In this document: positions 1,554-64,000 of the stretch, piece by piece
Numbering within the stretch: position 1 is the first letter of the stretch
How the letters are laid out: each line of letters opens with the position of its first letter
Source of the DNA: Vicugna vicugna
Lineage: Eukaryota
Direction of reading: 5' to 3'
Assembly: GCA_013265495.1 (NCBI GenBank)
Contig: MU057776.1
Coordinates: forward strand, 62,001 to 126,000
Length of the DNA: 64,000 nucleotides
Program-made: the position numbers and the translations under genes
The notes under the pieces: generated by a model
The model's database searches: none
What the model was told of the DNA's origin: nothing
The model's input: the letters and a program-made list of their open reading frames with translations, nothing else

Positions 1554-1918
1554 GCCCTGTCCTTCCAAGGCGGGGCTGCTTTTCTCAAGGTCCTGCTGGC
1601 AGCCTTCCTGGCTAGACAGAGGCCTGGTTTCCGGGCTGTCTGAGGAGAACGCTTGAGCTAATCATTGATGAGATTACGATACAAGACTTTCTTTGTCTTA
1701 TTCTCTTTAACTGTGGCAAAATATACAAAATGTAAAATTGACCGTCTTAACCATGTCTAGGTTCACAGTTCAGGGACACTAAGCTCACTCACGTGGTTGA
1801 GCAGCCATCACACCATCACCTCCAGGACTCGTCCGACTTCCCAGACTGACACCCTGTCCCCAGTGAACACTCACTCCCCTCTCCCCGAGCCCCTGGCCCC
1901 GGGATCTGCTTCCTGACT
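1554..1918 (+). repeat. Dispersed direct duplicate of 62562-63121 (upstream flank of the IFITM1-like gene); right half derives from an old L1 3' end
   Basis: gccctgtccttccaaggcggggctgct...gagctaat...aaaattgaccgtctt aligns to 62562-62756. 1794-1873 is identical to 63005-63084 (80 bp, checked base by base). Confidence 0.92.
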
Positions 1919-3338: not shown

Positions 3339-3463
3339 TTTGGATAAAAGTGGATTTATTTAGAGAGATGTACATGGAGGGGGGTGTGGTGGTTCAAGTA
3401 AAGGTAGACACACACTCCATAGACAGAGTGCAGGCCGTCTCAGAAGGCAAGAGAGAGAGCGCC
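3339..3463 (-). mobile_element. Short tailed retrocopy of an ERV LTR R region
   Basis: Matches the R segment of the LTRs at 36936-37577 and 37882-38500 (gatttatttagagaga...cacactccatagacagagtg...gaaggcaagagagagagc). Short T tail at the left end. Flanking imperfect repeats tctatatgtctt (3327-3338) and tctgtatgtttt (3464-3475). Confidence 0.75.
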
Positions 3464-4359
3464 TCTGTATGTTTTCTTTTTCAAGTAGCCTTTATTTTTT
3501 TAGAGCAGTTTTAGGTGTACGGAAACATCTCCCGCAAGTACAGAGAGCTTCCACACCCCCACCCTCCGAGGTTCCCCTGCTGCTGACACCATGCGTTAGC
3601 GTGGTGCATTTGTGACAGTCGAGGAACCAGTGTTGGTACATTAGTATTAGCTAAATCCGTAGTTTACATTAGGGTTCTCTCTTGGTGTCATCCCTTCTGT
3701 GCATTTGGACAGGTGCGTAATGTCCCGTGTCCAGCATTACGGAATCACACAGAGCAGCTTCACTGCTGTAAAACGCCCTATGCGCCTCCTGGTCAACCCT
3801 CCCTCCCCCAGCCCTGGTACCATGGGTCTGTTTGCTGCCTGCCCTTTCCAGAGTGCCATGGGGCTGGAGTCACACAGGACGTAGCCTTGTCAGACTGACT
3901 TCATCCGCTGAGCAGTGTGCATTTAAGGTTCTTTGGTGTCTTTTCATGGCTTGATGGCCCGTTTCCTCTTCTCGCTGATCATCACTGTACGGAAGCACCA
4001 GAGTTTGCTTGTCCATTCACCTACTGAAGAACAAGAACATCTATCACCGAATTTTAGCAGTTATGACTAAAGCTGCCACAGACAGCCATGCCCAGGGTTT
4101 CATGTGCACACAAGTTTCAGCTCATTTGGGTCAATGTCTAAGAGTGCAGTTGCTGGATTGCCTGGTAAGCCTACATCAGCTTTGTTAGAAACCTCCAAGC
4201 TGTCTTTCACAATGGCTGTACCATTTTACATTCCTTCCGGCAGCGAAGGAGGTCCTGTTGCTCCATATCCTTGTCTGCATATGGTGCTGTCTGTGTTCTG
4301 GGTCCTAGGCATTCCAATAGGTGTGTAGTGGTGTCCTGCTGTTTTAACCTGCATTTCCC

Positions 4360-31591: not shown

Positions 31592-32804
<1,213 letters not shown>

Positions 32805-35850: not shown

Positions 35851-36935
35851 ACTTTTTATAAGGAGTCTCAGATTGAACTTTAAAAGGCCTCCCAAGGCCA
35901 GGAAAGTCACACCAAGGACTTGCCATCAGATTCTGCCTGCAATCCCTACAGATTTGGGTGGATTCCACTCTTCTCAAAGTCCCCAAAATATATTGAGATT
36001 TCTGCACCTGCCAGGAGGTGACCTTCCTTATTCACCTGGTAAAGCTGCTTGGAACCCAGTAAACAAGGTATCAGGTTGTTTTTCCAAGAAGCTTCAGGCT
36101 CCATAATGTTCACCTTTGTTCTTTAAAGCTGTCTGGTCATACCTGATTTTATGCATATTCTCAAATATGACATTTCAAAGCCAGGTTAATATAACTTATG
36201 CTTCCAATTGTGTCTTGTTATAGGGAGAAGAGATTCTCATTGAACTTCCAAAAATAACTATATTGCCAGGAAGGTAAGAACACTCACTAGGAGTTTCCAA
36301 ACTCTGGAGGGATCAGGTGGAGAGAAAAGATAAATGACTCAATTCTGCTTGCAAAGGTATAATTTATCAAATTGCTGTAAGTCATGGTAACCTTAAGGAG
36401 AAAGTCTTCCTTAGATCTGAAAAACAAACATTAAAAACCAATATTTCAGACAAAAAGTCGTAACAGTTGCCCTTCATCCCTGTGTACTAATTCTTCTGGA
36501 TCTTGACCTTCTGTTACCAGGTTTATGTAGCCATCAGGTTCCCCATCAAAATTCTGTCATGTCTTCCCCAGTTCAGTGGCAGTTGTCTGAAAGTGATCAG
36601 AAATGTTTCACCTTGGTATTTTGTCCTTTGCTTTCCCTTTCTATTTTAACTTCTTTTTAGAACAAAATTACTTTTTCCTTTGACAAAATGCATTTCCATT
36701 CTTTATACCTTCTTTTTCCTTGCATGCAAAGATGTCTTCCTCATTAATTTTAGTAGTTTTAATTACCTATTTTAATTACAATCCTTAACCTTTAAAAAAA
36801 AACCCTTAATTTCTAGTGAAAATCAAGAAGTAAGCAATTATGAACTCTTTTACATTAGCACTCTGTAGATCAGCAAACTTACTATTTATAATTTCAAAAG
36901 ACATGTGCTTTCTTATAGAATATGCCTCAGTGTGG

Positions 36936-37577
36936 TGATGCAGGAAAACGGATGTGGGGCGTGAGGAGGGCCAAGTCCCAGGTCTCAGCTGAGCCCCTGG
37001 TATGTGCCCCACCAAGTGTGGGTCCTTGGCTTCACACAGGAAAGGATTCGAGTGTGAGCCACCATTGAGTAAAGGTAGATTTATTTAGAGAGACACACAC
37101 TGCATAGAGTGTAAGGCAAGAGAAAGGGAAGGAAAGAGGTGTGGGAATTGGGTGCTCAGGTTAAAGTAAAAGTAGGTGCACACTCCGTAGACAGAGTGCT
37201 GGCATCTCCGAAGGGGAGAGAGAGCACTAGGTGCCACTAGGCGTGGTGGTGTCACTTTTTATGGGCTCAGTAGCTTCACACGCCCACAGGTGGGATCAAC
37301 CCAACTGCCCAGGGGAAAGGGCTGGGGTTCCCAGGGACTGGGCCACTGCCCATGCTTTGGCCTTTTGCGGTTGGTTAGCCTTGGGGCTGTCATGGCGCCT
37401 GCGGGCATGTTATTCGATCACGCTGTTACAATGAGTGTATAATGAAGCTCAAGGTCTACTAGAAGTTAAACCTCTTAATCCTCAAGGCCAAGGAGGAGGT
37501 GAATCCCCTACCATTTTGGTGTTAAATTGCTGTCATTCCTTGAGTGGCTGTGCCCTGCCCCCTTCCATCCTGTCTCA
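36936..37577 (-). mobile_element. ERV1-class solo LTR (family A), 642 bp, perfect 4-bp TSD
   Basis: On the minus strand TGAGACAGG...CTGCATCA; GTGG at 36932-36935 and 37578-37581; CATAAAAA at 37256-37263 and AATAAA near 37080. Confidence 0.92.
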
Positions 37578-37881
37578 GTGGCACCAAATATACTTACTAA
37601 TATCTTTCATAATAACTTTCTGTAGTTAATCTTCCAGTATTTTATTTGGAAATGACCTAGACATTCAATAAATTTTCATCATTTAACTTAAGTTAAGAAG
37701 ATTCTTAAGTTTCAAGTTACCAAAAATCTGGAGAAATTACTTTTAACTAGACATATCATAAAACAATTATTCTTAAAATGTTCACCTGAAGGCTTACTCC
37801 ATTTCTATCTCTTTAATTCACTTATTACCAATAATTATGTTTAGATTATCCATGAAAACTTCATGAGACACTAGACCAAGA

Positions 37882-38500
37882 TGATGTAGGAAAATGGATG
37901 TGGGGTGTAAGAAGGGCTGTGTCCCAGGCTTCGGTTGGGCCCCCGGGACGTGCCCCGCCAAGTGTGGGTCCTTGGCCTCGCGCAGGAAAGAATTCAAGAG
38001 GGAGCCACGGTTGAGTAAGGGTAGATTTATTCACAGAGATACCATGAAAGGCAAGGGACAGGCCAGGAGGTGTGGGGGTTGGGTGCTCAGATTACTAGTA
38101 GGTGCACACTCCACAGACAGGGTGCGGGCCGTCTCTGAAGAGGGGGGCGGCGGCCATAAGGCACCGTGCTGCTAGTTTTTATGGGCTTGGTGGCTAATGC
38201 TAATAAGTGGAAGGACCAGTGCAAGTAGCCTGAGGAAGGGGCTGGGATTCCCAGGAAGTTGGCCATTTCCCACTCTTGACCTTTTGTGGCTGACCTCCGG
38301 ACTGCCATGGCACCTGTGGGCATGTTATTCCCCATGTTAATATATTACAATGGGCGTATAATGACGCTCTAGATCTGCTAGAAGTTAAATCTCCCACCAT
38401 CCTGAGCCTCAAGGCCTGCTGGGGGTTGAACCTTTCCCCATTTTGGTGTTAATTGCTGTGGCATTCCCTGAATGGCTGTGCCCTATTCCCTCCTGTCTCA
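37882..38500 (-). mobile_element. ERV1-class solo LTR (family A), second copy
   Basis: Colinear with 36936-37577 with the same termini (tgatgtagg...tgtctca). No intact TSD. Confidence 0.88.
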
Positions 38501-44584: not shown

Positions 44585-45837
44585 GCGGAAAGAAGGGGGA
44601 GAGCCCATCCACCTGGAATTCTATTTCTAGTGACTTATTCCTTGGGGTAAAGGGGAAGTAGACTTCCTAAACAAAAACGGCATTCCTTTGTCAGCAGATG
44701 GACCGGTAAGAAATGCTACAAAAAGTTTTTCTGGCAAGACATAAACGTATGCAGGTTAGAAACCTTGATCCTCATTAGGAAAGAAAGTGAATCAGTGAAG
44801 GAGTAACGGCAGGAAAATAGAATATTCTATTTCTCATTGTTAACTGAATGAGAAATAAGAACCACTGTTTGGTGACAGTGATTGTGGTGATTGTGAGTTC
44901 GGTTATGACAGCTCCAGGAAGGGAGATGAACGAGGCAATGTTGTCAGGCCCTGGCGGGGGGCCTGGGGACACGCCAGGGTCCCTGCACCACTTGTGAAGC
45001 AGCACGGTGCTATCTGAAGGGGCACACAGTCGGTTAAAATGCGTTCAGGCGATTTTGGCAAGAATGGTAAAGTAAGCCTCCCCTCCTCTCTGAACCCTTT
45101 CTAGCGGAAAGAAGGGAGAGAGCCCATCCACCTGGAATTCTATTTCTAGTGACTTATTCCTTGAGGTAAAGGGGAAATAGACTTCCTAAACAAAAACAGG
45201 GCATTCCTTTGTCAGCAGATGGACCCGGTAAGAAATGCTACAAAAAGTTTTTTCTGGCAAGACATAAACTTATGCAGGTTAGAAACCTTGATCCTCATTA
45301 GGAAAGAAAGTGAATCAGTGAAGGAGTAACGGCAGGAAAATAGAATATTCTATTTCTCATTGTTAACTGAATGAGAAATAAGAACCACTGTTTGGTGACA
45401 GTGATTGTGGTGATTGTGAGTTCGGTTATGACAGCTCCAGGAAGGGAGATGAACGAGGCAATGTTGTCAGGCCCTGGCGGGGGGCCTGGGGACACGCCAG
45501 GGTCCCTGCACCACTTGTGAAGCAGCACGGTGCTATCTGAAGGGGCACANNNNNNNNNNNNNNCCTCTCTGAATCTGTCATAAGAGCAACAAGTACCCCG
45601 GCAAAACTTGTTAGAATAAAACTTTTCAGAACTCTGGAAATTAGCAAACTCCTCGCACTAATCTGGGTGTGATTTAATCAAGACAAGAAAATGAGGTAAA
45701 GTAAGCCTCCCCTCCTCTCTGAACCCTTTCTGTCATAAGAGCAACAAGTACCCCGGCAAAACTTGTTAGAATAAAACTTTTCAGAACTCTGGAAATTAGC
45801 AAACTCCTCGCACTAATCTGGGTGTGATTTAATCAAG
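44585..45837 (+). repeat. Near-identical tandem duplications around a 14-N gap (probable assembly artefact)
   Basis: 44585-45026 is repeated at 45104-45549; about 45575-45680 is repeated at about 45730-45837; a linker recurs at 45066 and 45695; Ns at 45550-45563. Confidence 0.9.
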
Positions 45838-47462: not shown

Positions 47463-48941
47463 TGCTACTGACAAAGACTGGTTCCGGAAGTTTAAGAAAC
47501 ATTAGCTGGCCACAGATATCATCAGGAACGTACGTGCCACCGAGGTAGCAGAATGACTGGGGTTCATCCCACAGCAGCTCCAGTTCTGCTTAGCAAAAGT
47601 GGCCCCGCAAGCACTCGCGTTCCACGCCGGGCTCCACGCCAGCGAGCCAGGCTTCTTACCCATTGGAAGTCTGAGAAGAGGTTGAGATCGTTTCAGCCCC
47701 AAGACCTCTAATCATTCGCTTGACCGGACAAAACTGCCTTGTGTGCGGTGCTACTTTGGGGAAAGGACAGACAGTAGCCGTGAGAGAGCAGGAGACTAGC
47801 GGAAGGGCTTCCCCGACGCGAAGGCTGTTTGCCGACCCGTTCTGACTGAAAGTCCTTGCAGCTTGTTTTCTCTTTTCTCTGACAAACCCCCATCTCTGCT
47901 CGCTGCACTCTCCCCGCACTCCCTGTACGCTCTTCTCCCAGAACAGCCGCTCCTCTAGCCCAGCAGCGATGCTCCAGGAAGGTGCTCATGGCTGACAGCC
48001 TCGGAAGGATGAGCAGACCCTCTGGAGTTTCCCTGTGGTGCCCGGTGGCCTCATCAAGATGAGGAAGAGGGCAGCGCCCAGAAGACGCCCTGATGGCTGT
48101 TGCCTTTCTGTTCCAGCCGGGTTTTCTATAAAACCTCAGGACACCAGCCCCAGGATGGATTTGAGACAGGAAGGAAGGGGTCAGGGCAGGGCGTTCAAGG
48201 ACTGACGCAGCAGTTAGCACCAAAGCTATGGAAGGGTCCGCTCCCGGCAGACCTTGGGGCCCAGGGTGATGGAGATTCGACTCCTTACGGACCTGGAGCT
48301 TCATTATACACTCACTGCAGTGTATCAGCATGGTAAACGGCCCTCCCACGGGGGCCAGGGCAGTTTCGAAGCTGACTATAAAGGCTCAAAAAGTGGGTGA
48401 TGGCCCAATTCCTGGGAATCCCAGCCCCTCCCTCAGAGTGGTTGGATTAATCCTCCCACTTGTCAGCCTAAGAAGGTACCAGCCCCTAAAAGCTAGCAAC
48501 CCCTACATCTCATGGCCACTCTCCCTTCTGAGGGAGCCAGGCCACAGTCTGTCTGAAGAGTGTGCATCTACCGAGCACCCAACCCCCACACCTCGTGGCC
48601 TTTCTCTTGCTTCTGAAACAGCCTGCACTCCGAAGTCCGCATCCCCCTAAATAAATCTGCCTTCACTCAACTGTGGCTCCCTCTTGAATTCTTTCCTGCG
48701 TGAAGCCAAGGACCCACACTCAGCGGGGCACGTCCCAGGGGCTCAGCCGAGACCTGGGACACGGTGCCCCTCTTGCCCACATTCGTTTTTCCTGTGTCAG
48801 CTTCGCAGCCTCTGAGGCACGAGCCTGCTGTGACCCCCTTTGCAGGCAAAGCAGTAAAGCTGTTCTCTTCTAACTCTGCCCAGGCTCTGCCTCCGAGTCT
48901 CAACTTGGCCGTAGGGTACAGAGGCCAGTTTTCCAGCAACA
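47463..48941 (+). mobile_element. Older ERV LTR split by a nested family-A LTR
   Basis: TATA-like tataaaa at 48127 before the insert; U5-like cagtaaagctgttctc...gtacagaggccagttttccagcaaca after it. 5' limit uncertain. Confidence 0.5.
48162..48799 (+). mobile_element. ERV1-class solo LTR (family A), + orientation
   Basis: TGAGACAGG...CCTGTGTCA; AATAAA 48650-48655; flanks gatt/gctt (4-bp TSD, 1 mismatch); reverse-complement homologue of 36936-37577. Confidence 0.88.
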
Positions 48942-56919: not shown

Positions 56920-57838
56920 ATGAACCGCGTCGCCCAGGCCGCCTTCCCCGGTGCCCACGTGGGCATACCCCCGGCGTATGAGATGCTCAAGGAGGAGCAC
57001 GAGGTGGGGGTGCTGGGGGCTTCCCAGAGCCCGGCCCCCGTGACGACCACTGTGATCAACATCCGCAGTGAGACCTCCGTGCCCGACCACATCGTCTGGT
57101 CCCTGTTCAACACCCTCTTCCTGAACGTGTGCTGCCTGGGCTTCGTGGCATTCGCCTACTCTGTGAAGGTGGGAGGGTGCCTGGGGGAAGGAGCGTGAGC
57201 CCGGCGAGGCCCCTGCCCAGACGGCACGTGGGCTGTGGGAGGCCTTGTGCATATAGTTCTGTGTGTGCGTGCGTGTGTGTGCGTGTGGGCGAGCGCACGC
57301 CCAGGCGTGCAGGTCGTGATGAGGTTGCAGGGGTGCGTGGGGATGACCAGCGTCAGCCTTTTGCCCCGTGGTGGGGCGGGCGGCCAGTAGGAGGCCAGAG
57401 CAGAGGGACGGTGAGCCCTGGGGCCTCCTGGACAGGCTGAGAGTCTGTGAGGAGGGAGATCCAGGCCCCAGGAGGGGAGGGAGGGCCCGCTGGGCACGGT
57501 CGTGCTCAGGCTATGGGGAGACGGGCAGGGGTGGGTCCCCAATGGGTGAATGGACACCGGGGGACCAGCAGGGAGGACCTGAGTCTTGGCACCTGGCCTT
57601 CACCCGGCCCGGCCCCAGGTCCCCCTCACCATCTCTCCTCCCCCAGTCCAGGGACCGGAAGATGGTGGGCGACATCCTTGGGGCCCAGAGCTACGCCTCC
57701 ACCGCCAAGTGCCTGAACGTCTGCGCCCTGGTGCTGGGCATCCTTCTGACCATCGTGTTCATCATTATTTTTGCCACTGGCTCCCTGATGATTTTCCAGG
57801 CGATTTCACAGATTGTAAAGGAGTATGGAGGCTACTAG
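56920..57838 (+). CDS. IFITM3: IFITM3-like antiviral protein. Exons 56920-57168 and 57647-57838; 146 aa
   Basis: [29 protein letters not shown] with PPxY and Y20EML motifs; C71/C72/C105, F75/F78, G91xxxG95; [12 protein letters not shown] junction; Kozak accATG. Orthology among IFITM2/3 paralogues cannot be resolved here. Confidence 0.92.
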
Positions 57839-61474: not shown

Positions 61475-62326
61475 TTAGTAGCCTCTATTCTTCTTCATAA
61501 ACTCTGACGTGATATGGTTGGCCATAGGGTATAAAAATACCAGAAGAACGATGACTCCAATGGTCCCGAGGATGCCCAGCACCAGGGCACAGACGTTCAG
61601 GCACTTGGCAGTGGCGGCATGGCTCTGGGCCCCAAGGATGTCGCCCACCATCTTCCGGTCCCTGGACTGGGGGAGAGATGGTGAGGGGGACCTGGGGCCG
61701 GGCCGGGTGAAGGCCAGGTGCCAAGACTCAGGTCCTCCCTGCTGTCCCCCGGTGTCCTTTCACCCACTGGGGACCCACCCCTGCCCGTCCCCCCACAGCC
61801 TGAGCACGACCGTGCCCAGCGGGCCCTCCCTCCCCTCCTGGGGCCTGGATCTCCCTCCTCACAGACTCTCAGCCTGTCCAGGAGGCCCCAGGGCTCACCG
61901 TCCCTCTGCTCTGGCCTCCTACTGGCCGCCCGCCCCACCACGGGGCAAAAGGCTGACGCTGGTCATCCCCACGCACCCCTGCAACCTCATCACGACCTGC
62001 ACGCCTGGGCGTGCGCTCGCCCACACGCACACACACGCACGCACACACAGAACTATATGCACAAGGCCTCCCACAGCCCACGTGCCGTCTGGGCAGGGGC
62101 CTCGCCGGGCTCACGCTCCTTCCCCCAGGCACCCTCCCACCTTCACAGAGTAGGCGAATGCCACGAAGCCCAGGCAGCACACGTTCAGGAAGAGGGTGTT
62201 GAACAGGGACCAGACGATGTGGTCGGGCACGGAGGTCTCCGTGGGGATCTGGATCATGGTGGACATCACGGGGGCTGGGTTCTGGGGAACCCCCAGCACC
62301 CCGACCTCATGCTCCTCCTTGTACAT
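61475..62326 (-). CDS. IFITM1: IFITM1-like protein. Exons 62326-62141 and 61666-61475; 125 aa
   Basis: Short N-terminus [12 protein letters not shown] lacking YEML; CD225 domain; exon 2 [63 protein letters not shown]. Length and RGY end resemble IFITM1. Confidence 0.92.
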
Positions 62327-62453
62327 GTTGGCGTTGGGGAAAGCAGATGCTGCTCGCAGAGGGAACGAAGGAGACGGTGTTTCTCGAGGCTGAGTTGGAG
62401 CAGTTGTGCTCTCTGGCCAGCCTAGTGCAGAGTGGGCCCTCCCCTTCTGGTTT

Positions 62454-62484
62454 GGTTTCTATTTCTCGGTAGTTTCTATTTCCT
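62454..62484 (-). promoter_or_regulatory. Tandem ISREs of the IFITM1-like gene
   Basis: Minus strand AGGAAATAGAAACT (62484-62471) and GAGAAATAGAAACC (62467-62454). Confidence 0.9.
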
Positions 62485-62756
62485 GTTGTTTCTGAACTGC
62501 TGAATTGTCTGGAAAATAGGAGGGTTGGACAACTAACTGGGTGCCTGGTAGGATTTTATGAGCCCTGTCCTTCCAAGGCGGGGCTGCTTTCCTCGAGGTC
62601 CCGCTGGCAGCCTTCCTGGCTAGATGGAGGCCTGGTTTCCAGGCTGTCTGGGGAGAACACTTGAGCTAATTACCCATGAGATTATGATACAGGACTTTCT
62701 TTTTCTTATTTTCTTTAATTTGGGTAAAATATATACAACATAAAATTTACCGTCTT

Positions 62757-62945
62757 TTTTTTATTTGAGTAAAGGTAGATTTGTTTGGAGAAATACCCAG
62801 TGCGCAGCGGGCAGGCTGTTTCAGGAGGCGAGAGAAAGGCCACGAGTTGCTGCAGTTGGGAGCCCAGGTTAGAGTAAAAGTAGATGCACACTCCACAGAC
62901 AGAGTGCGGGCCGTCTCTGAAGAGGAGGGGGCAGAAAGGGCCGCC
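62757..62945 (-). mobile_element. Poly(A)-tailed retrocopy of an LTR R region with TSD
   Basis: T tract, then gagtaaaggtagattt...cacactccacagacagagtgcgggccgtctctgaagagg as in family-A LTRs. AAAATTTACC at 62742-62751 and 62946-62955. Absent from the paralogous site at 1734-1750. Confidence 0.88.
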
Positions 62946-64000
62946 AAAATTTACCACCCTAATCCCACCTCGGTGCAGAGCTCGGGACACTAAACTCACT
63001 CACATGGTTGAGCAGCCATCACACCATCACCTCCAGGACTCGTCCGACTTCCCAGACTGACACCCTGTCCCCAGTGAACACTCAGCCTCCAGCCCCTGGC
63101 CCCGGGATCGGCTTCCTGACTCTGTGACTGTGACTCCCCCAGGGGCCTCACCGCACAGGAGTGGAATCAGAGCGTTTGTCCTCCTGTGTCTTCTTATGTC
63201 ACCAAGTGTAACGTCCTCAGGGTTCGTCCACATTGTAGCATGAACTGAAGGACGAATGACATACACTTGTCTTATTTTAACGACCAGTAGAAGCCTCTTC
63301 TCTGGCCGCTTTGCCAGGCTTCCCGGTGGCTTCCGTTCCCAGCGGTGGTGTGTCTGTGCAGCAGGCTTTCCGGGGAGGAGCCTCCTGTCTGGGGGGAGAA
63401 AGGAACTGTGGGCCTGGGGTGCGGGGGCTTGGTCTGCTCTTTAGGGGCCAGAGCAGCAAACTGGGAGTGCTGAGGGCACAGGCGGCAGAAGTGTCTGAGA
63501 GCAGGAGCTGCGTCAGAGGCCCGTCCCTTGGCATCAGCGATGCCTGCCTTGGGTGCGTGGCACAGAGACCCCCGGATGAACTCTCGCCCAGCAGGGACGG
63601 GGAGGCAGGCTAGAAGCTGGCCCGGGAGCTCGGGGTCGTCCCGAGCTAGGCGCCTCCTCTCCTCCTGCCCGCTGCCCGGAGAGAGGGATTTCTGTCCTTC
63701 CTGGACCTCCAGGCCCTGTGTCCACATCCACGCAGCACAAAGCGAGAGGCAGGCCAAGAGCCGAGGGTGTGCTGACTTGGTTCTGTTCTCCACCGGGAGC
63801 ATCATGGTTCCTGTGGGCTCATGCAGCCGGCTTCCTCTTCCCTCCCATTGGCCGAGGCTGTTTCCCACGGTCACCGCCTGGGAAGTCAAGGTTTAGAGGA
63901 AGGCACGTGACTAACCCACCCAAAGTGGGTGCTGTGGGTGAGGGAGGAGGGCAGAACGGGTCTTGGGGTGACATCTGGCAGGGCCCACCACCCCGGGGCT

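Follow-up and report, generated by a model that had tools for sequence, protein, structure and literature searches.

R-only LTR retrocopies in the Vicugna vicugna genome, probably made by LINE-1 from short RNAs that start and end within one LTR

The window, i.e. the whole stretch of 64,000 nt analysed here (Vicugna vicugna, GenBank assembly GCA_013265495.1, contig MU057776.1, positions 62,001 to 126,000), contains near its right end an IFITM-type first exon on the minus strand (62141-62332; Pfam CD225, E = 8e-10) and, upstream of it on the same strand, two tandem ISRE cores with the sequence GAAATAGAAAC (62456-62485). Upstream of these ISREs, at a distance of 272 bp and in the orientation of the IFITM-like gene, lies a short element that is made up of the R region of an endogenous retrovirus (ERV) long terminal repeat (LTR) and an A-rich tail, flanked by a target site duplication (TSD). 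A second IFITM-type first exon is located at 56977-57168 on the plus strand (Pfam CD225, E about 8e-10), and a sequence near 32549 on the minus strand, identified by a motif alone, is presumably another. The segments 61544-62321 and 57769-56988 form an inverted duplicate of 95% identity, and a run of 14 N at 45550-45563 marks either an assembly gap or a withheld stretch. The window further holds LTRs of the same family and a probable second R-only copy (Table 1).

Table 1. Positions in the window of the R-only copy, its target site and other members of the LTR family
Feature	Position	Strand	Description
R-only retrocopy body	62766..62945	-	Cap site to poly(A) site; direct reading and BLAST
A-rich tail, 9 nt	62757..62765	-	AATAAAAAA on the minus strand; T-rich run on the plus strand
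TSD copy, tail side	62742..62756		AAAATTTACCGTCTT
TSD copy, side of the element's 5' end	62946..62960		AAAATTTACCACCCT; 12/15 identical
Empty target	1734..1748		AAAATTGACCGTCTT; in paralogous segment 1547-1918, where both insertion flanks align
Full LTR, U3-R-U5	36934..37577	-	CATAAAAA at 37256-37263; reference 158-821, 79%
Full LTR	37879..38500	-	CATAAAAA at 38176-38183; reference 158-822, 76%
5'-truncated LTR	48267..48802	+	Reference 262-822, 73%
Probable second R-only copy, internally deleted	3342..3465	-	Read by eye and BLAST

Direct reading of the minus strand delimits an R body of 180 nt that opens with GGCGGCCC and closes with CTACCTTTACTCA, and thus extends from the cap site to the CA located 15 nt past AATAAA, a poly(A) signal whose present state in this copy is AACAAA. 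BLAST searches within the window and against a natural reference LTR found neither U3 nor U5 in the copy; positions 62765-62933 align to reference positions 521-689, which is the R part only. The TSD is a direct repeat of 15 bp, and each of its three mismatches is a transition. Both flanks of the insertion align to a segment elsewhere in the window, the left one with 87% identity over 202 nt and the right one with 85% identity over 185 nt, and they overlap there in the uninterrupted target. An old repeat, of which the genome holds at least 241 candidate copies with 72-76% identity, makes up part of this segment (about 1696-1918). As the next-best genome matches of the flanks are merely 72-76% identical, and as 150 nt are common to both flank segments of the window and absent from the other copies of the old repeat, the segment is a true paralogue and not just another repeat copy. 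On the strand of the element, the target reads TT/AAGACGG. The original prediction had described a match confined to the R part of the LTRs, an A tail, a TSD of about 15 bp with mismatches, an uninterrupted target in the paralogous segment and a position about 270 bp upstream of IFITM1-like ISREs, all of which our analysis reproduced; the TATA-like boxes of the two full LTRs likewise lie where it had placed them.

The reference LTR used as a ruler throughout is L028, a natural full LTR that spans ruler positions 158-817, with the TATA-like box CATAAAAA at 480-487, GGCC at 509, AATAAA at 669-674, the CA at which tails start at 686-687, and U5 at 688-817. Its R region contains an internal near-repeat, CACGCCTCGTGGCC..., at about 497-525 and 603-627, and at about 565-590 a look-alike of R's own 3' end, ATCTACTTTTACTCT; in one further locus, L093, the stretch between the internal near-repeats has apparently been lost. 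The two full LTRs in the window lie on the same strand with an AT-rich spacer of 301 bp between them, in which one word resembles the internal region of L018 and L058, two long poly(A) copies from other parts of the genome. We considered the two as the LTR pair of one young provirus and rejected this assignment on the basis of their mutual identity of just 71%. The probable second R-only copy opens with GAGGCGCTCTCTC, closes with AAATAAATCCACTTTTATCC at the position of the poly(A) site and continues with AAAAAG; its TSD, AAAAAGA(AAA)CATA as read by eye, is imperfect.

Copies of the R-only type recur in the genome, for which the window's own 2.03-Gb assembly was searched. A DNA search with the element yielded 2013 first-look candidates; scores were computed for 40 of these, and 30 were classified by their flanks. 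These 30 comprised 12 complete LTRs, 7 copies with U3-R followed by poly(A), 10 R-only copies with poly(A), the window copy included, and 1 copy with R-U5 but without U3 (L006). Among the 40 scored candidates, the closest matches of the window copy were 83-84% identical, with no markedly nearer LTR, and its nearest relative in an alignment of R sequences differed by p = 0.156. Exhaustive pattern counts that allowed at most one mismatch in 23 nt found the R end followed by A7 at 345 places, 1202 R/U5 junctions and 1400 R ends with any downstream sequence, while the reversed-pattern controls gave 0 matches. This genome-wide recurrence, set against controls of zero, excludes chance as the origin of the window copy.

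The 5' ends of the poly(A) copies are concentrated at one point. In a detailed sample consisting of the first 70 of 100 exact poly(A) places listed in contig order, 47 copies open at one GGCC/GCC motif, which lies about 22 nt past CATAAAAA in the LTRs; this count includes L039, which starts 14 nt further upstream, and several copies with weak TSDs (e.g., L036, L057, L076). Truncation within R was seen in 12 copies and truncation within U3 in 6, and another 5 carry a full U3 together with internal ERV sequence ending in CTCTGAGGGGGG. Motif starts made up 16/30 of one batch and 31/40 of the other, in samples that are conditioned on a well-preserved R end of 16-23 nt and represent the earliest loci in contig order instead of a random draw. 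A second sample, the first 40 exact R ends irrespective of what follows (24 of the earlier loci, the window's own LTR and 15 new loci), contained 31 LTRs, 2 copies with U3-R-poly(A), 2 with R-U5 but no U3, 2 poly(A) copies truncated within R, and just 3 R-only copies that begin at the transcription start site (TSS). There is thus roughly one R-only copy per 5-8 LTRs, an abundance that would rival the most prolific cellular retrocopy families. By our own estimate, about 230 R-only copies fall under the strict pattern (345 x 47/70); their true number is probably several-fold higher, and, as judged from these patterns, hundreds of them appear to be scattered through the genome. The LTRs themselves are represented by 1202 R/U5 junctions as compared to 74 PPT/U3 junctions (at most one mismatch), which suggests that about 95% of the family are solo LTRs, and a primer binding site (PBS) downstream of the LTR was missing from all 40 R/U5 junctions inspected as well as from 12 further LTR loci.

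The copies carry the hallmarks of LINE-1 (L1) processed retrocopies. In the window copy and at all 70 sampled loci, the poly(A) tail is attached directly at the transcript cleavage site; the tails have a median length of 13 nt and range from 7 to 42 nt. A TSD with a score of at least 9 was assigned at 47 of the 70 loci (median 15 bp), with mismatches at 32 of 670 positions, a figure that is biased low by the way TSDs are picked. L1 retrocopies typically have TSDs of about 7-20 bp, and the 15-bp TSD of the window copy is accompanied by the empty paralogous site. The inferred nick sites resemble the L1 endonuclease target TT/AAAA, which in the window copy is TT/AAGA: among the 47 TSD-bearing copies, T is the base at -2 in 35 and at -1 in 28, and A is the base at +1 to +4 in 40, 40, 35 and 36 of them, where the A at +1 is partly forced by leftward extension of the TSD through As and the enrichment of T is not. 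Inserts of 136-184 nt account for 39 of these 47 copies, with 4 shorter and 4 longer. Extension from the TSS to the poly(A) site (47/70) occurs together with a series of 5' truncations (12/70 within R), as is expected of processed retrocopies. For genome-wide hits, the original prediction named termini that peak sharply at the TSS and at the poly(A) position, together with A tails, TSDs of 8-20 bp and TT/AAAA-like targets, and all of these were found. Two other known layouts do not describe the window copy. A solo LTR would have a full U3-R-U5 body, TG...CA ends and a short integration TSD, and U3 and U5 are missing here; a HERV-W-type pseudogene would read R-U5...internal...U3-R-A(n), and R stands alone here. 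Related loci of the same family, however, do display U3-R-A(n) and R-U5-PBS forms.

Relative to CATAAAAA, the preferred 5' end is located 22 nt past this box and 28-29 nt from its start, which is the usual spacing between a TATA box and the start of transcription. The same 5' end is shown by two copies, L006 and L104, that derive from templates without an upstream U3, and the start therefore represents the cap site of an RNA and not a stop of the reverse transcriptase. In sense orientation, L006 (G000:C5843, about 1500-2215) is composed of R, U5, the word TGGTGCCCAACGTGGGGC, a leader of about 400 nt and an A-rich tail. The word TGGTGCCCAACGTGGGGC resembles a PBS for tRNA-Lys1,2 with one mismatch, a CpG transition, and is thus a putative PBS. 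The tail of L006 is associated with no obvious AATAAA.

L104 (extended as L141/L143) is bounded by the TSD AAATGACTAYRCCATCTGCCT, whose copies are identical at 19/21 positions, and contains R from approximately the cap site, followed by all of U5, a non-ERV stretch of about 360 nt and A9. A query with 290 nt of this non-ERV flank returned exactly one further match in the genome, with 87% identity, at L144 (G000:C3916). There, the flank directly follows a complete LTR (ruler 158-810) that has host-like DNA on both sides, and neither a polypurine tract nor a PBS was found at this locus. The homology between L143 and L144 begins at the cap site and stops at the point of tail addition, with 11/151 mismatches in R, 19/133 in U5 and 29/349 in the flank. 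It follows from this match that the solo LTR at L144 fired from its own start, that transcription read through the poly(A) site of the LTR into host DNA and that L1 copied the resulting RNA. On sequence grounds, the source of L104 is hence an LTR other than the 5' LTR of a provirus, and this one case directly supports the part of the original prediction in which solo LTRs act as transcription units whose RNAs, begun at their own TSS, are templates for L1. Given that the flank divergence of about 8% is around half of the mean pairwise distance in the family (16.5%), we infer that this event took place well after the burst of LTR amplification. At the position of the poly(A) signal, the source LTR has AGTAAA (L144, about 1262-1285) and the retrocopy L143 has AATAAA. 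Another copy with R-U5 but without U3, L120, has an A8 run 80 nt past U5 and no convincing TSD.

We propose that the R-only copies arose as follows. Briefly, the transcription start of an LTR would fire and give rise to a capped Pol II RNA, which would be cleaved and polyadenylated at the poly(A) site of the same LTR, so that an RNA of about 180 nt consisting of R alone is released. Target-primed reverse transcription by L1 would then turn this short RNA into a processed retrocopy. It is very likely, in our assessment, that L1 copied short Pol II RNAs that were initiated and polyadenylated within one LTR, and with the same high likelihood the element in the window is a DNA copy of such an RNA. 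The short R RNA itself, as well as the identity of the LTRs that made it, is deduced from the structure of the copies. Any LTR of the family, be it a solo, 3' or 5' LTR, could yield the RNA; solo LTRs would be the likeliest sources because the family now consists almost wholly of them, whereby the type of the source LTR is unreadable from an R-only copy. Each R-only copy would be dead on arrival as it carries no U3 promoter, and the class would have grown by repeated sampling of LTR transcripts and not by self-propagation.

An alternative hypothesis is that L1 inserted full-length R-U5...U3-R-A(n) copies, which later recombined between their two R regions and left R-A(n) between the original TSDs. 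The end product of such recombination would be indistinguishable from a direct R-only insertion, L1-made HERV-W copies are often full length, and the high proportion of solo LTRs indicates that recombination between repeats is efficient in this family. The constancy of the 5' end is by itself a weak argument against this scenario, since L1 products are bimodal in length. However, the scenario requires that 47 of 58 beyond-R copies were once full length and that almost every one of these recombined across only about 179 bp, whereas we infer that approximately 40% should have stayed unrecombined if the rate scaled with repeat length. Full-length pseudogenes that had escaped recombination were not encountered: all 8 poly(A) copies with a full U3 break off 111-787 nt before the 3' LTR without reaching an upstream U5 or R, and the 40 R/U5 junctions included no R-U5-PBS copy that lacks U3. 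In addition, L104 and L144 demonstrate that RNAs initiated at a non-proviral LTR did serve as templates for L1. We therefore consider recombination scars improbable as the general origin of the R-only copies.

The long poly(A) copies are heterogeneous in themselves. A TSD is present at the internal 5' end in three of them (L002, L004 and L053); for L035, L037 and L058, a TSD at the 5' end of the internal sequence was sought and none was convincing, and none was found for L018 or L058. In L040 (G000:C2085), which is 5' truncated, 227 nt of leader directly adjoin the 312 nt that precede the 3' LTR, so that it derives from a subgenomic RNA that was spliced or else from an element with an internal deletion. 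L018 and L058 start at an identical internal point, GTTAAGTTAAAT, and L004 starts 10 nt further in; L004 and L002 have about 385 nt of extra internal sequence as compared to L018 and L058. The internal region of L018, L058 and L004 is AT-rich and looks non-coding.

The original prediction also called these copies a SINE-like family. The term is apt for their size, tail and copy number, but not for their mechanism. SINEs have a head derived from tRNA, 7SL or 5S RNA and an internal Pol III promoter, whereas the ends of the R-only copies are set by a TATA box and an AATAAA signal, and a search of 62600-63100 against Rfam gave no match to a small-RNA family at E up to 1. A true self-propagating lineage, in which master copies use neighbouring promoters, would account for the high copy number and for the observation that the nearest neighbour is another R-only copy for 35 of 55 R-only copies, with the LTRs split 27 to 26, a comparison of low power in a star-like family. 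Yet R has no promoter, and a foreign 5' extension was present in 0 of 70 copies. In an alignment of the last 150 nt of R from 55 R-only copies, 53 LTRs and 17 U3-R-poly(A) copies, mean distances were practically equal within R-only copies (0.164), within LTRs (0.165) and between the two (0.165), and these equal distances provide no dates because a copy inherits the accumulated changes of its source. The tree required 35 changes of label between R-only copies and LTRs as compared to 36.3 +/- 2.8 after shuffling, a test with little power since the family is star-like and the distances from the two halves of the alignment correlate at only -0.008, which leaves no power to resolve sublineages. At this low power, the R-only copies show no evident lineage of their own and no class-diagnostic difference from the LTRs. 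Size and copy number of the SINE-like description are thus retained, while the lack of a promoter, of a small-RNA family match and, at the low power just described, of an evident lineage of their own speaks against the remainder, and we regard self-propagation as even less probable than recombination.

Slightly less probable again is the idea that the templates were long ERV mRNAs on which reverse transcription by L1 preferentially halted, or was cut short, where U3 meets R in the 3' LTR. Truncation at the 5' end is indeed common among the poly(A) copies (12 copies within R and 6 within U3 of 70), but these other truncation points are scattered, and 47 of 70 ends at one spot do not constitute a truncation series. 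Moreover, the preferred end coincides with the cap site that is set independently by the U3-less copies L006 and L104, and it lies 22-29 nt from the TATA-like box. That the R region instead goes back to an already existing poly(A) retroposon which the LTR captured, so that the R-only copies would be the older family, has no specific support and is scarcely credible in view of ends that match the TATA-defined start and AATAAA-defined end of the LTR, equal divergence in both classes, an unbroken series of poly(A) copies that are truncated in U3 or contain internal sequence, and one read-through copy with a traced source LTR.

L1-mediated copying of short RNAs within single LTRs, the reading we prefer, has partial parallels in known systems. 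SINE-R consists of env and U3-R from the 3' end of a long HERV-K RNA, and SVA is a composite with propagating subfamilies. They share with the copies described here the spread of LTR-derived sequence by L1, a poly(A) tail as well as TSDs; unlike them, each R-only copy would correspond to the whole RNA transcribed from a minimal LTR unit, and the copies form no apparent lineage of their own. Retrocopies of miRNAs, snoRNAs and U6 arise when L1 acts in trans on short non-coding Pol II/III RNAs, and as in our case the way in which the parent RNA was produced can be read from their ends. The parent here, however, would be a multicopy promoter/terminator unit of an LTR, with copies in the hundreds.

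Processed pseudogenes of HERV-W are described, in the covered text of two accounts, as ERV transcripts mobilized by L1, with an R-U5 5' end, a U3-R 3' end, a poly(A) tail, a TT/AAAA site and TSDs of 5-15 bp (PMC5016936, PMC5537654). The review among them names HERV-W as the sole HERV group mobilized by L1, and the parts covered describe no R-only class (PMC5016936, PMC5537654). The likeness to what is known of HERV-W lies in the L1 machinery and in ends at R boundaries, and comparable forms occur here in L002, L004, L006, L035 and others. The difference is that R alone dominates (47/70), that the RNA would never have left the LTR, and that the host is not a primate. The proposed template has a counterpart in human HML-2 solo LTRs, where, according to the covered part of a direct long-read RNA study, 29 of 194 reads initiate and terminate within one LTR (PMC13238051). 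This is the RNA species we postulate, with start and polyadenylation inside one solo LTR, but it was reported there as RNA in human cells and not as retrocopies, and for a separate ERV family. The covered portion of a survey of camelid transposable elements makes no mention of such copies (PMC8605555), and our search of the full-text literature found no description of R-only LTR retrocopies. Retrocopies of ERVs made by L1 are known; what appears to be new is the dominance of the minimal LTR transcript, and the copies are not a new kind of element.

More tentatively, and with slightly less confidence than doubt, we suggest that R-retrocopies of LTRs are an overlooked class of L1-dependent retroposons and that an RNA of about 180 nt is an unusually good template for L1. 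Under that suggestion, and with equal reserve, any ERV with a poly(A) signal in R might turn every one of its LTRs into a minimal promoter-terminator unit. If so, the copies would be fossils of TSS and poly(A) sites at base resolution that lie hidden as 'LTR fragments', and an ERV family of a non-primate would have been mobilized en masse by L1.

The proposed origin would widen the range of trans-templates of L1 to the shortest possible retroviral transcript and would imply germ-line activity, as promoter-terminator units, of LTRs that lie outside proviruses. Sequence alone would also suffice to map, for extinct retroviruses, the cap site, the poly(A) site and the boundaries of R. Many annotated 'LTR fragments' may be retrocopies, with insertion dates and mechanisms unlike those of LTR integrations, and the dating and copy counts of ERVs would be affected as a consequence.
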